64,000 nucleotides of DNA from Phormidesmis sp. (GTDB lineage Bacteria > Cyanobacteriota > Cyanobacteriia > Leptolyngbyales > Leptolyngbyaceae). The position numbers and the translations under genes were made by a program. Positions 59,003 through 64,000 of the stretch are shown here, one piece after another. The notes under the pieces are model-generated. The model saw nothing but the letters and a program-made list of their open reading frames with translations. It ran no database searches and had not been told where the DNA came from. Position 1 is the stretch's first letter; each line of letters starts with the position of its first letter. The stretch spans positions 1,568,001 through 1,632,000 of the forward strand of contig CBDFJR010000005.1 in assembly GCA_965248535.1 (NCBI GenBank), written 5' to 3'.

Positions 59003-60079
59003 TTAGAGTTTCTGCCCGGCGGAGATCGTTCTAACTTCCCCGTTTCGGCGCACGGTGACATATTGTTTAGACACTTCGACCAGGTTCCAGCCGCTCGACC
59101 CAATACTTTCACCCACGTAGTAGCGCTGAGTGATGCCATTCAACTCAAATAAAGCCGCCGATCGTGAGGGGTCTGAGCCTTCTAGAACCCCAACTAGGGT
59201 GCGCTGAGGGGCCACGGGTTCAGGATTAGCTTGGGGCACAGAGCGCGCTTGAGGCTGCAACGTGACGGGGCGATTGGCGGTGGGCGAAAGGCGCTCTAAC
59301 ACACTGGCCAGCCGACCCAAGATCTGGTTTAGCTCTCGGCGAGAGGGGTCAACGGGGCTGGAGGCTTGAGGCACGGTGACCACGATCGGAGACGTTTTGG
59401 GCAACGGCACCGACGATCGCAGCGGCGGCTGATTAGCAGGCACCGGAACCGTGGGCAGCCCGCTATTATAAGGCGCGGTGGGCAGTCCTTCTGCTTTTCC
59501 GGTGGCGGCTTTGCGATCGATGGCTTCGAGCGATCGCTGCACATAGTCAGAAAACTGCGGGTTGGTGTCTACCTGGGGAGTTGGAGCGATCGTCGTGGGC
59601 ACGATCGTCTCAGGGAGCGGAGTCAACGCGGTCACAAATCGGCTAGCTAGCCCACTCGTCACGAGCCAAACGGTTAACGCTGCGACAGCAGACGTGCATC
59701 CTGTGATGATCAAGAAGCGAGTAAACCCATTTCCCCGATCGCTGGGCGGCGGTTGGGTATTCACCAATTCACCCAGATCGGGCAGCGTGGAGGGATCGCG
59801 TTCAGGTTGCGGCTGCGGGCGAGTCAGCAGGCCAGACGAGAGAGGCGGCGGAGCAAGATTGAGCTTAGGTCGGGGAGCGGGCGCTTCCACCCGCACTGGC
59901 TCAGAAGGAGGAACGGCCCCGTCGAGCAAGCGATCGACATCACCAAACAGGTCATCCATCAAGCGATCGGCGTAAGACTCGACCAAAAATGGCTCAGGCA
60001 GCGAATCTACGCCTGAAGTCCGCGAGTCATCATGGGTAGGATCGAGAAGCGGTTTGGGGTTTGTGACGGGTTGAGTCAT
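59003..60079 (-). CDS. Single-TM Pro-rich protein with possible PilP/GspC-like C-terminal domain
   Basis: YADRLMDDLF, one TM helix, C-terminal LVGVLE..AALFEL..YYVGESIGSSGW. Confidence 0.6.
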   Translation of the reverse strand: MTQPVTNPKPLLDPTHDDSRTSGVDSLPEPFLVESYADRLMDDLFGDVDRLLDGAVPPSEPVRVEAPAPRPKLNLAPPPLSSGLLTRPQPQPERDPSTLPDLGELVNTQPPPSDRGNGFTRFLIITGCTSAVAALTVWLVTSGLASRFVTALTPLPETIVPTTIAPTPQVDTNPQFSDYVQRSLEAIDRKAATGKAEGLPTAPYNSGLPTVPVPANQPPLRSSVPLPKTSPIVVTVPQASSPVDPSRRELNQILGRLASVLERLSPTANRPVTLQPQARSVPQANPEPVAPQRTLVGVLEGSDPSRSAALFELNGITQRYYVGESIGSSGWNLVEVSKQYVTVRRNGEVRTISAGQKL

Positions 60080-60364
60080 AGCTTTCTTGCTGATGTCGAT
60101 CAAAACGGACGATTGACTGCAAATGCACCTTTAGGATAATGATTAAACTAATGAGCAACCGTTTAGGCTGATCTTGATCACAGGTGTTGTCGGCGTTTGA
60201 AGAGACGATCCCCACTCATAGCACTTAGTGAGGATAGCTCAAATGCCAAGTTAGCGCTAAATCCTGTACGAATTTTAATATTCGTTTGAGAATTATAGTC
60301 ACTCAAGCAGAGGGCGATGACATTTAGTGAAGAAGTTTAGTGGAATTCGGTGAAACCCGCGGAC

Positions 60365-60679
60365 TTATGGGTGTGAACTCAGTCCCGTAGTGCTACAGAG
60401 AATCTCGATCGCTTGGTCGGCGGTAATCAGTCGTTTTAAAACCACTTGCCCGATCGCCGGGTTAGGCATCGTCGCGGCAATCTCTAAACTTGGCTTGACC
60501 TCAACCATGAGAATGGCCTCTTCGACGCGATAGAGCCACAGCTTTTCGCCATTTTCCCAGAGGCAGAGGGTGGTTTGCTCAATTTCTGGGGTGCGCCTCC
60601 AGGCGATTTCGTTCCACAAGCCGCCGAGTTCCCAAATGCGACCGACAAACCAACCATCGGAGAGAAAAAAATACTTCAT
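60365..60679 (-). CDS. Conserved cyanobacterial hypothetical protein
   Basis: 104-aa ORF with upstream GAAGGGA; MKYFFLSDGW.VGRIWE, IGQVVLKRLI. Confidence 0.75.
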   Translation of the reverse strand: MKYFFLSDGWFVGRIWELGGLWNEIAWRRTPEIEQTTLCLWENGEKLWLYRVEEAILMVEVKPSLEIAATMPNPAIGQVVLKRLITADQAIEILCSTTGLSSHP

Positions 60680-60841
60680 CTATCCCTTCGAGAAGCTCAG
60701 ATTTGCTGTTCACCATAGCGCGACTCGCTAGAGTCTTAGACGAATTCTGTAGGATCTCTCAAGGAATTTGCCAAATTGAATCGGTTTCTAAAGGGTTGAT
60801 GAAGGAATTTTATGGGTGGGGGTTCACGGGCTGCGATCGCT

Positions 60842-61021
60842 TCAAATTTTCCCCTCTTCTTCCGCCTTCTTCAAACCGTCTCGAATCAACCTTTGAGCTG
60901 TTTTTCCTTCCGATCGCTCTTCTACTCTTGCCAGTTTTTTAAGCTTTTCGCTCTCGTCTTCCGTTAAAGGAACATTCAAACGCCGAGAAGATTCCTTTTT
61001 TTGCGGTTCATCTTGGTTCAT
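60842..61021 (-). CDS. Small ribbon-helix-helix (CopG/Arc-like) protein, 59 aa
   Basis: Hand translation MNQDEPQKKESSRRLNVPLTEDESEKLKKLARVEERSEGKTAQRLIRDGLKKAEEEGKI*. Confidence 0.75.
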   Translation of the reverse strand: MNQDEPQKKESSRRLNVPLTEDESEKLKKLARVEERSEGKTAQRLIRDGLKKAEEEGKI

Positions 61022-61250
61022 CTTTGCTCAATTAAGTGCTGCTTTGGTTCAAGAACGATCAAAAGTAGAAGCCAGTGCGTCCCGTGGAAAGTTCTGCACT
61101 GGCTTTTGCTCCAAACTCAATGTAGGAGACAGAAACATTATGTCGTATGCGATCGTTTAAGACGATAGGCAGTCTTTCGCTTGCTTGCAAAGTTGAATGC
61201 CAGCGCTAGCCGTTAAAATAGAGTCTGACCTTCTGCTGCACCCGATCGCC

Positions 61251-63158
61251 ATGAACGCTCCTGTAGATTTTATTGATGCCTATGATGTGGTGGTCGTCGG
61301 AGCCGGGCATTCAGGCTGTGAAGCAGCATTGGCTAGCGCTCGGCTCGGCTGTCGCACGCTGCTGCTGACCCTCAACCTCGATAAAATCGCGTGGCAACCG
61401 TGTAACCCGGCAGTGGGCGGCCCAGCCAAGTCGCAGTTGGTGCATGAAGTCGATGCGTTGGGGGGCGAAATTGGCAAAGTCAGCGATCGTACCTACCTGC
61501 AAAAGCGCATTCTCAACGCCTCAAGAGGCCCGGCAGTGTGGGCGCTGCGGGCGCAAACCGACAAGCGCGAATATGCGGCGGTGATGAAGAGCATTGTAGA
61601 AAATCAAGAGAATTTGACCATTCGCGAGGGCATGGCCACCGATCTTGTCTTGGGGGCAAACCAAGAAGTTAGAGGAGTGCAAACCTACTTTGGGGTAGCG
61701 TTTGAGTGCAAAGCTGTGGTGCTGACCACCGGGACTTTTCTGGGTGGAATGATCTGGGTCGGCAACAAGTCAATGGCCGCCGGACGAGCCGGAGAGTTTG
61801 CAGCCGTAGGCTTGACCGAGACTTTGAATCGATTGGGCTTTGAGACCGGACGCTTAAAAACCGGGACACCTGCTAGAGTCGATCGGCGATCGGTCAACTT
61901 TTCTCAACTCGAACCGCAGCCCGGAGACACAGAGATTCGCTGGTTTAGCTTTGACCCTGACGTGTGGGTTGAGCGCGAACAGATTCCCTGTCACCTGACG
62001 CGCACCACTGCCGAGACCCACCAAATTATTCGCGAAAACCTTCATCTCTCGCCCGTCTATGGCGGCTGGGTTGATTCTAAAGGGCCGCGCTATTGCCCCA
62101 GCATTGAAGACAAAATTGTCCGCTTTGCCGACAAAGAAAGCCATCAGATCTTTATCGAGCCAGAAGGACGCGACACTCCAGAGCTTTATATTCAAGGCTT
62201 TTCAACGGGGCTACCCGAAACGATTCAGCTAAAAATGTTGCGATCGCTCCCTGGTCTAGAAAACTGCGCGATGCTGCGTCCTGCTTATGCGGTCGATTAT
62301 GACTATCTGCCCGCGACGCAGTGCTACCCGACTCTGATGACCAAAAAAGTTGAGGGACTGTTTTGTGCGGGTCAAATTAACGGCACAACGGGCTATGAAG
62401 AAGCGGCCGCTCAAGGCTTGGTCGCGGGTGTCAACGCGGCTCGGTTTTGTCGTCATCAAGAGATGATCGTCTTTCCGCGTGAGCAGAGCTATATCGGGAC
62501 GCTGATCGATGATTTGTGCACTAAAGATCTGCGCGAACCTTATCGGGTGTTGACCTCACGATCGGAATATCGGTTACTCCTGCGATCGGACAATGCCGAT
62601 CAGCGTCTCACGTCCCTCGGTCGAGAGATTGGATTGATTGACGATCGTCGCTGGCAACTCTACACCACTAAGCAAGAAAATATCACGGCTGAAAAAGAGC
62701 GATTGCATGAGACACGCATCAAAGAACACGATGCGATTGGTCAAGCGATTGCTAAAAATACTGAGCAAGCGATTAAAGGATCAATCACTTTAGCAGAGCT
62801 TTTAAGGCGCTCTGGGTTTCACTATGTAGATTTAGATCGACATGGATTGGGAAACGCTGCCCTCGATCGCTCTGAACGAGAAGGTGCCGAAATTGACATC
62901 AAATATGCGGGCTACATTCAACGTCAGCAGCAGCAGATTGATCAAACGGCTCGTCAAGAACATCGCAAGTTGCCGGATGATTTGGACTATGCCGCGATCG
63001 CCACGCTTTCTAAAGAGTCGAGAGAGAAATTAGCCAAAGTCAAACCGATGACGATCGGGCAAGCAACTCGCATCGGGGGGGTCAACCCTGCGGATATTAA
63101 CGCGCTGCTGGTTTATTTAGAAATCCAATCTCGTCAAGCTGCGGAAGTGCTGACATGA
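61251..63158 (+). CDS. mnmG: tRNA uridine 5-carboxymethylaminomethyl modification enzyme
   Basis: [46 protein letters not shown]. Confidence 0.98.
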
Positions 63159-63251
63159 CAGCCTACACAATCAATTTCAATCCTGTAATCCAGGATCAGC
63201 TTTGTCGGGCAAATCCAGAGATGAAGTTTGAGCGCAATACCCAACGAGAAC
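63155..63251 (+). pseudogene. Uma2-family endonuclease 5' fragment, interrupted
   Basis: [32 protein letters not shown] resembles cyanobacterial Uma2 N-termini; similarity ends at the attC crossover. Confidence 0.7.
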
Positions 63252-63330
63252 AGCTAAGTTGGGCGGCGGCTAGCATCCATTACTTCCTCACCAGGAGTTT
63301 TTGCTCGTCTGCTCCAACGTGTTGTTATAC
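63245..63330 (-). mobile_element. Integron attC recombination site
   Basis: Minus strand: R'' GTATAAC - AACAC - L'' GTTGGAGC AG A CG AGCA ... TGCT AGC CG CC L' GCCCAAC - TTAGCT - R' GTTCTCG. Confidence 0.78.
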
Positions 63331-63481
63331 CGGGCTTTCGCGACAAGTTAACGACTTCTCTGCCGCTTTCTGCTTCCTTCTTGCGTAGGTCTGCAAAGAT
63401 TGCGTCCAAATCGTAGTTGAAGGATTTCGCATACTCTTCACGGATTCGGTGGATCTCTTCGACAATCTCATCTGTCCACAT
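63254..63481 (-). CDS. Putative antitoxin partner of the PIN toxin
   Basis: MWTDEIVEEIHRIREEYAKSFNYDLDAIFADL; C-terminus reads into attC. Confidence 0.75.
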   Translation of the reverse strand: MWTDEIVEEIHRIREEYAKSFNYDLDAIFADLRKKEAESGREVVNLSRKPGITTRWSRRAKTPGEEVMDASRRPT

Positions 63482-63484
63482 AAC

Positions 63485-63958
63485 CTAATCTCCCATTAGT
63501 TCATTGGGTGTGCACAGGATAGGCAACACATAGCCAAAATCTAGACTAATCTCCGCCAACTTCCTCTGCATTTGGGCATTGGCGATATGTTTGCAATTCC
63601 ACGTTAACAGATAATCCATGCCGTGTATGGTAGCGGCAGCGATGTGGATCGCGTCCACCCTCGCCTTTGCAGGAAGACTACTTTGAGCGAGAAATTGCGC
63701 AGCTAAACCTTGTACGACTTGATTCAATGACAGCAAGGGAAAATTGCGCAGAATCTCCCGTCGTTGAGCAGCAATCTTTGCGTCCCCCTGTGCCACTTCC
63801 TCTAGAACCGCCTCCGAAGTGTAGAGAGTGAAGGCGTTTCGACGAGATTCCCACCAGTCTTTTGTGATCTCAATATTTGCAGCCAAGATCAGGTCTTTGG
63901 TTGACCTAGCAGTAAGGTATCCCAAGATACTAGTTTCGATATAGACAGTCTCGGTCAT
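63485..63958 (-). CDS. PIN-domain (VapC-like) toxin
   Basis: VYIETSILGYL, DAIHIAAA, YLLTWNCKHIAN. Confidence 0.9.
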   Translation of the reverse strand: MTETVYIETSILGYLTARSTKDLILAANIEITKDWWESRRNAFTLYTSEAVLEEVAQGDAKIAAQRREILRNFPLLSLNQVVQGLAAQFLAQSSLPAKARVDAIHIAAATIHGMDYLLTWNCKHIANAQMQRKLAEISLDFGYVLPILCTPNELMGD

Positions 63959-64000
63959 ATTTATTTAACTCACGACTATCGCTGGGAGACTCTCACCCCT

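Follow-up and report, generated by a model that had tools for sequence, protein, structure and literature searches.

Solitary cassettes and the locus in Phormidesmis

Integron cassettes may be found outside integrons as a single attC site without an integrase (SALIN), and the integrases IntI1-3 have been reported to insert cassettes at genomic GWT triplets (attG sites), with gene disruption and with deletions on imprecise excision (Loot et al., bioRxiv 10.1101/2022.09.11.507474, in its main text). Integrons were reported in Cyanobacteria, with single attC sites set aside as possible false positives or decay products, by Cury et al. (bioRxiv 10.1101/030866), and gene cassettes with toxin-antitoxin (TA) systems are known in integrons (PMC8618304). 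Here a locus of Phormidesmis sp. is described (assembly GCA_965248535.1, contig CBDFJR010000005.1, positions 1,568,001 to 1,632,000 of the forward strand; this stretch of 64,000 nucleotides is called the window). A PIN-domain gene, a small partner gene and an 86-bp attC site interrupt a Uma2-family gene behind mnmG in the window, and the element is a real, though eroded, SALIN, whose origin is probably an attC x attG insertion by an integrase acting in trans.

The locus is like the SALINs and attC x attG products in the main text of Loot et al. in that one attC accompanies coding sequence, neither an integrase nor a further att site is close by, the junction is a GWT and a host gene is disrupted. 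Unlike those SALINs, it is a natural cyanobacterial event with an empty allele available, its far end is deleted, and the integrases at hand are native chromosomal IntI, not IntI1-3. The word "cyanobacteria" has 0 occurrences in the main text of that preprint, though its supplements, or those of Cury et al., may list cyanobacterial SALINs. With the clusters of attC sites lacking an integrase (CALIN) and the single sites treated by Cury et al. the locus shares an attC without an adjacent integrase, and it differs from a CALIN in having one site, not a cluster. Single sites were set aside there, but the attC of the window is shown to be real by its homology and its empty site. The two-ORF (open reading frame) cassette carrying a TA pair is in line with the cassettes described in PMC8618304, from which the window differs by the toxin-first order, by a partner of no named family and by a partner tail and stop derived from attC; several copies in relatives differ from the same cassettes in that the TA pair is fused behind a passenger gene and half an attC. 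No paper joining attC with Uma2, Nostoc or antitoxin overlap was found in literature searches, which did not cover supplements.

The attC site and its junction with the Uma2 gene

The attC site (63245..63330, minus strand, slightly decayed, last 6 bases target-derived) reads from 63330 to 63245 as R'' GTATAAC, spacer AACAC, L'' GTTGGAGC, AG-A-CG, AGCA ... TGCT, CG-CC, L' GCCCAAC, spacer TTAGCT and GTT-CTCG, and every sequence detail of the attC architecture given in a preliminary description of this DNA was present. The boxes followed the order RYYYAAC-L''-L'-GTT with conserved AAC and GTT and spacers of 5-6 nt; R'' had one deviation from the RYYY consensus, shared with three copies of the TA family (L035, L052, L053). 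Both A.C mismatches of the stem become G.T pairs on the plus (bottom) strand, which agrees with the wobbles described earlier, and in the minimum-energy fold of this strand the R box and the L box were formed with both extra bases unpaired.

Since the folding energy of the site was no better than that of shuffled sequences, profiles without its own family were used as the test. A covariance model (CM) was built from 15 attC sites outside the TA family (11 from the Phormidesmis genome and 4 from other genomes), which are regarded as attC because they are sited in arrays beside IntI and because group II intron domains occur at 8 such sites. The CM matched exactly 63245-63330 with 45.7 bits (E 5.8e-9, rough calibration), the hit that the CM check proposed in the preliminary description called for; the remaining 7 of its 8 matches in the window reached 11.9 bits at most, and attC copies of the same TA family scored up to 82.5 bits. 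The alignment behind the CM covaried, with 90.2% of cells paired and 39 two-sided changes, a level reached by 0 of 500 shuffles (kinship uncorrected). A hidden Markov model (HMM) from 10 non-family attC sites found the window site with E 1.5e-7 genome-wide. Rfam gave no relevant match in 60000-64000, with one chance match at E 9.5. A loose regular-expression scan was not discriminating (25 hits in 5.0 Mb vs 5 in 1.5 Mb of shuffled DNA) and served only for seeding the profiles. From its boxes, fold and profile matches, the 86-bp element is judged a genuine attC site.

The host flank is a 653-aa ORF (61197..63158, plus strand) with DNA-level orthologues in relatives, which we take to be mnmG (gidA), a name carried over from the preliminary description. 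Its stop overlaps the start of the 5' remnant of the Uma2-family gene (63155..63250, plus strand), which holds codons 1-38 of 191 with an 18-bp deletion and ends at GAA, as aligned with G007, a genome of the same genus. In G007 an intact 191-codon Uma2-family gene was present, its start overlapping the mnmG stop as in the window, and the remnant had 66% amino-acid identity with it over residues 1-38 including the gap. The Uma2 label comes from the preliminary description and from the resemblance to a paralogue, which is the best PF05685 match. Uninterrupted Uma2 was found directly behind mnmG in 17 of 28 loci (L139-L166, fetched from 90 family genomes), two of the 17 being frameshifted further down and one cut by the locus end, with 15 parsed for the junction codon. 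The empty site looked for in relatives was therefore seen in G007 and at 16 further loci. At the mnmG locus the TA pair was present in 0 of 40 relatives, so the finding named beforehand as evidence to the contrary, the same pair there without the attC-like tail, did not turn up.

As had been described, Uma2 similarity in the window ends at GAGAAC (63246-63251). With the 15 Uma2 orthologues the match to the window extended as far as 63251, and the T that all of them have at the next position, 63252, was absent from the window; the cassette copies matched it from 63249. Because Uma2 and the cassettes overlap in exactly AAC, the crossover could be set at 63250|63251, that is, at the G|TT (63249..63251, minus strand) claimed before inside Uma2, with the G at 63251 from attC and the TT at 63250-63249 from the target. 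The junction codon was GAA in 10 of the 15 orthologues, and GAA-C in 4 of them. DNA similarity to homologues ended at 63249-63253 in 7 places of 6 other genomes (G009, G010, G015, G018, G023 and, twice, G024). Among 27 family copies the triplet had G at a frequency of 0.85, T at 0.96 and T at 1.0, the next base of the window was found in only 0.04 of copies, and 16 different 4-mers followed the triplet in 23 full copies. The window departs from the 27 copies after GTT, so the R' tail is target-derived, as suspected, and the junction has the form of a G|WT with a target-derived tail.

Uma2 was also considered as a recurrent attG hot spot and rejected, being within 500 bp of only 1 of the 52 attC-like sites of the genome (that of the window) and of 0 of 27 family attC ends. 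Apart from the cassette of L105, no CM match was found at mnmG-Uma2 loci among 23 loci scanned. In G002 (L023, G002:C62, ~116600-117600) another PIN TA pair, with a left-half attC, disrupts this Uma2 gene, and the pieces resemble cassette regions of Phormidesmis; this disruption is independent and not the same event, because only half an attC is present and the junctions are others.

Integrases and dispersed attC sites of the genome

Two intact IntI genes were identified (468 and 466 bits, cut-off 265), 68% identical to each other, so an integrase of the kind postulated to act in trans is available. Both are on contig C2 and none is on C5, where the locus lies 1.63 Mb and 0.82 Mb from the contig ends, and the statement that no integrase is nearby was correct. 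The nearest other attC-like site is ~62 kb away, so the locus consists of a single attC with its coding sequences and no other attC or intI in the neighbourhood.

The dispersed cassettes that had been surmised were found as 52 attC-like sites, which form 27 clusters, with 14 sites standing singly. This count comprises 45 of 51 CM rows (4 opposite-strand duplicates and 2 weak rows being removed) and 7 sites found by the HMM only, and the CM search of the genome scored 150 of 1204 candidates. The window case is not unusual, being one of the 14 single attC loci and belonging to a class, SALIN/attG, that is described in the main text of Loot et al. It provides a natural, base-mapped cassette insertion outside an integron, with its empty allele, in a phylum without case-by-case documentation in searchable papers, and it adds to the picture of the genome as a dispersed cassette reservoir with two IntI. 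Its weight is limited by the published mechanism, by the damage at one end and by a cleaner two-ended example elsewhere in the same genome.

Three other single sites were compared with five same-genus genomes. One was clean: a solitary cassette at C2:1882553-1883317 (L131:1554-2318; site C2:1883233) with G|TTATGC at its start, a 183-aa ORF, R'' GCATAAC and G|TTCTCC at its end; in 5 of 5 same-genus genomes the sequences flanking it directly adjoin each other. Its target tail begins with TTCTC, like that of the window. For the second site, whose start could not be clearly placed, the flanks were adjacent in 4 of 5 genomes and a single unbroken match covered them in the remaining one, and the third (C2:1835627) was at a synteny break. 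Rearrangement breakpoints adjoin 2 of the 4 single cassettes examined (that of the window, with the breakpoint just past its end at 64040-64050, and C2:1835627, L130), which may be chance in a heavily rearranged genus.

The two integrons have an identical block of ~190 bp, which has at its end, in the attI position, an attC-like hairpin of 114 bp. Copies of this hairpin were located at C2:161068-161181, C2:1132828-1132941 and C5:797636-797749 (L116, L117 and L118), the third of which keeps the upstream region of IntI-2 without intI. Group II intron domains (RF02001, RF01998) were detected at 8 attC places in 7 loci (L116, L117 twice, L118, L122, L127, L128 and L134), most with identical scores. 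Class C group II introns target attC.

Foreign affinity, missing far end and competing histories

In the tree, the pair of the window was sister to L105, from a Synechococcales metagenome-assembled genome, with support of 100/88 and an identity of 89%, or of 88% over 724 nt, and with midpoint rooting it was nested among copies from other families. The second TA copy of the same genome was 73% identical, ranked 31 of 87 and belonged to another clade, and intragenomic copying from it was ruled out by identity and tree. Because of its sister L105, its foreign neighbours in the tree and the placement of the genome's own second copy, the pair came from outside; by this affinity, the cassette appears to have been acquired from another cyanobacterium. 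The sister copy (L105:3983-4714) ends in G|AT, its PIN gene is interrupted by an in-frame stop at about codon 120, and it lies between two genes that, from their translations, presumably encode a histidine kinase and a response regulator.

At the far end, 18 nt of the module leader survive (63959..63976, minus strand), identical in L105 and not a cassette start; the G|TTAAAT before the PIN start (GTT at 63967-63969) was ruled out as such, L105 sharing 7 more bases beyond it. A second Uma2 remnant follows (63978..64000, continuing to 64039, plus strand), which holds codons 98-117 and is identical to the Uma2 gene of G007 at 57 of 62 nt. Measured on the intact gene, this internal piece begins ~175 bp beyond the point of the crossover, and after its 62 nt it stops. 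The earlier layout of Uma2 holds for the end at GAGAAC and had overlooked this second piece, which is partly inside the window (63978-64000); the rest of the gene, predicted beyond the window, proved to be only this 62-bp internal scrap (63978-64039), with no intact 3' half. The 3' flank of frr begins at 64051, and in G002 and G007 that flank follows another gene, which is ~520 kb away in the Phormidesmis genome. The usual position of the -10-like hexamer of the TA family is occupied by Uma2 DNA in the window. Because this position is replaced and neither GTATAA nor GTCTAA remains, the cassette must have lost its start and any passenger, and probably its promoter as well. The element is considered a one-ended eroded insertion, not a clean excisable cassette, since its far end has no core and is followed by a Uma2 scrap and then by frr in a rearranged context.

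Contigs from public runs span both junctions with 0-1 differences, which rules out assembly errors; these runs are possibly from the source study, and the bridging checks the assembly only. No joint across the element, either an excised circle or an empty allele, was found among the public-run contigs, which drop rare variants, and in one RNA run only small foreign pieces were found. A promoter and terminator scan detected neither a promoter for the PIN gene on the minus strand nor a terminator following frr, though a hairpin folds there. Judged from this arrangement, it is possible that the pair is transcribed by read-through from frr.

The history that would best account for the locus begins with a cassette ending in PIN toxin, partner and attC, which would have arrived from another cyanobacterium. 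An IntI acting in trans, perhaps either of the two, would have joined its attC to Uma2 at G|TT. Ordinary deletions would later have taken away ~175 bp of Uma2 and the 5' part of the cassette, which would have included the G|TTRRRY start, the promoter position of the family and probably also a passenger gene. Further deletion and rearrangement, possibly in this order, would have removed the 3' end of Uma2 and placed frr beside the element. Because no upstream crossover site is left, the cassette has probably become immobile.

Several observations weigh against this history. The integrase signature is present at one end only: no GTATAA or GTCTAA occurs between the PIN start and frr, although GTATAA had been predicted past 64000, and the far end has no matching core. 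Where a target G followed by cassette TTRRRY complementary to R'' would be expected, only an AAC (63967) is found, inside the leader shared with L105. Synteny is broken only 60-70 bp away from the far end, so the history may exceed one insertion plus deletions. The closest empty allele, that of G007, has GAG-C, which is G|CT on the cassette strand and not GWT, and this requires the assumption of a synonymous GAG/GAA difference; the CRGM hotspot motif reported for IntI1 is not visible to the right of the crossover. The folding energy of attC, -10.8 kcal/mol, is not above chance (z = -1.12, 28 of 200 shuffles equally stable), compared with z = -2.54 for an intact family copy and z = -4.84 for another attC of the Phormidesmis genome.

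Two integrase steps may also be imagined, in which a longer cassette or small array first entered at another place in or behind Uma2 and a later attC x attG recombination deleted the DNA from this attC to GAA|C, creating the precise junction and removing the 175 bp. Excision at nearby genomic sites with deletion is reported in the main text of bioRxiv 10.1101/2022.09.11.507474, other copies of the same TA pair lie in composite cassettes or arrays, and the far junction falls at a GAT, fitting GWT, within the GCGATCGC of Uma2. This history is nevertheless unlikely, for it needs an extra event and still leaves the far junction without cassette-derived TT, and the ordinary deletions already visible in the Uma2 remnant (the 18-bp gap and the lost 3' end) are a simpler source of the missing 175 bp. 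In another version, a short cassette with a non-canonical start, composed of leader, PIN gene, partner and attC from G|TCGTGAG (63976), was inserted whole and only Uma2 DNA was lost later, the C and T at 63976-63977 being a Leu codon of the target. The similarity between the window and L105 does end at one and the same G, the Uma2 of G007 has C-T-A after the Glu codon where the window has C-T-ATC, the G|AT end of L105 is also a GWT, and unusual cassette ends are reported for IntI1 (PMC12901181). These agreements come from two copies and 1-2 informative bases, and GTC breaks the conserved triplet. No third copy was seen: the short leader had further copies in 0 of 400 other genomes of the phylum, and its 3 metagenome hits were all unrelated. 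No clear empty site was recovered for L105, whose closest relative is 72% identical and has ~170 bp of other intergenic DNA there. A short cassette of this kind seems distinctly improbable.

It is also conceivable, with very little likelihood, that no integrase took part. In that case illegitimate or transformation-linked recombination would have inserted a piece of DNA carrying the TA pair and attC into a Uma2 gene already in decay, and the position of the break at the R' triplet would be a coincidence. The far end is not integrase-like and lies at an octamer that we take to be of HIP1 type. The locus is unstable as well, 5 of 7 same-genus genomes having no Uma2 behind mnmG and G002 having a different TA insert, and next to the junction AGCTAA occurs both in Uma2 and in the spacer of attC. 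Against this, a join at the AGCTAA microhomology would drop the AAC, which is present, and the break is located in the single 3-bp stretch used by IntI, at the triplet where many other copies also end. An attC x attG insertion followed by erosion is accordingly preferred for the origin of the element.

The PIN toxin, its partner and their cassette family

The putative toxin (63485..63958, minus strand, 157 aa, intact frame) is a PIN-domain protein, VapC-like by Pfam and structure model. It matched PF01850 with 23.9 bits, just over the cut-off of 23.6, and no sequence match was found in PDB or NCBIfam. Its model had a confidence (pLDDT) of 92, with FitB and VapC entries among the best structural matches. 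Among 40 homologues E54, D102 and N121 were invariant and E8 was present in at least 90%. The putative antitoxin (63254..63481, minus strand, 75 aa) has a conserved helical core of ~50 aa, and its last 25 codons and stop are read from attC. No Pfam or NCBIfam family was above cut-off for it, and Atlas returned only unnamed clusters. The partner gene was behind the PIN gene in 80 of 80 loci, which are the best 80 of 493 confirmed hits.

In pairwise comparisons, nonsynonymous divergence (dN) of the PIN gene was 0.05-0.07 vs a synonymous divergence (dS) of 0.44-1.81, and that of the partner core (first 50 codons) was 0.01-0.07 vs 0.33-1.68. The attC-read partner tail (last 25 codons) had dN of 0.31-0.37 vs dS of 0.17-0.43, which indicates no protein-level constraint. 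Such pairwise values are silent on whether the branch of the window itself remains under selection. In family copies (L035-L114) with decayed or other-subtype attC, the partner tail is altered accordingly.

A complex of PIN protein and partner was predicted with a score of 0.86 vs 0.55 for the best control, with at least 96% contact agreement between runs and a partner pLDDT of at least 85, a prediction in favour of binding; the mark applied was reached by 116 of 157 solved and by 2 of 215 mismatched pairs, and likeness to solved VapBC complexes may contribute to it. The modelled interface would involve PIN residues 9-10, 52-54, 97-104 and 120-124, around the conserved acidic positions. With the linkage, the PIN fold and this predicted complex, the TA pair of the preliminary description remains plausible, and we infer the name antitoxin, along with toxicity and neutralisation, from these features. 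The PIN fold, the conserved acidic cluster and the small partner modelled across the putative active-site region are shared with the type II systems VapBC and FitAB. The window differs from them by the order of toxin then partner, by the N at the fourth conserved position and by a partner in which family searches detected no DNA-binding domain. It is called a VapC-like toxin and not a canonical VapBC system, because the partner is downstream of the toxin and has no family match.

A CM-detected attC followed the partner in 37 of the 80 loci, of which 8 had another attC, 2 more had intI sequence and 27 had neither, within fetched flanks of at most 4 kb a side, often shorter at contig ends. Some homologous cassettes belong to complete integrons, and arrays with the same TA pair adjoin full-length IntI at two places in G024 and a frameshifted intI in L058. 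The array cassettes there begin with G|TTAGAC, to which R'' GTCTAAC is the complement, and between this start and the TA promoter they have a passenger gene followed by the left half of an attC in decayed form. This half-attC leader was found in 9 of 82 copies and in 0 of 246 control windows, with passengers unrelated between copies. A -10-like hexamer lies 29-33 nt before the ATG in the family (34 matches among 80 loci).

Taken together, these features could suggest, as a tentative and rather doubtful reading, that the TA family is a cyanobacterial cassette "lock", mostly spread as solitary insertions. The dead left-half attC in the leader would fuse it behind varied passengers and make them inseparable from the toxin, the antitoxin would read through its own attC, and a passenger-less short form with a non-canonical start, as in the window and L105, might itself be mobile. 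No paper on such a TA cassette lock was found in the literature searches, within their scope given above.

Composite cassettes in which the TA family forms the 3' part and ends in a full attC were observed at L027:7464-8897, L028:7913-9346 and L043:3125-4417, and in L008 and L044. The arrays of G024 (L027:6154-11689, L028:4773-13685) contain many near-identical cassettes of ~308 bp in tandem. In the window, a 59-aa ORF (60842-61021, minus strand) divergent from mnmG gave a weak ribbon-helix-helix match (RHH_5, E 0.042, below cut-off).

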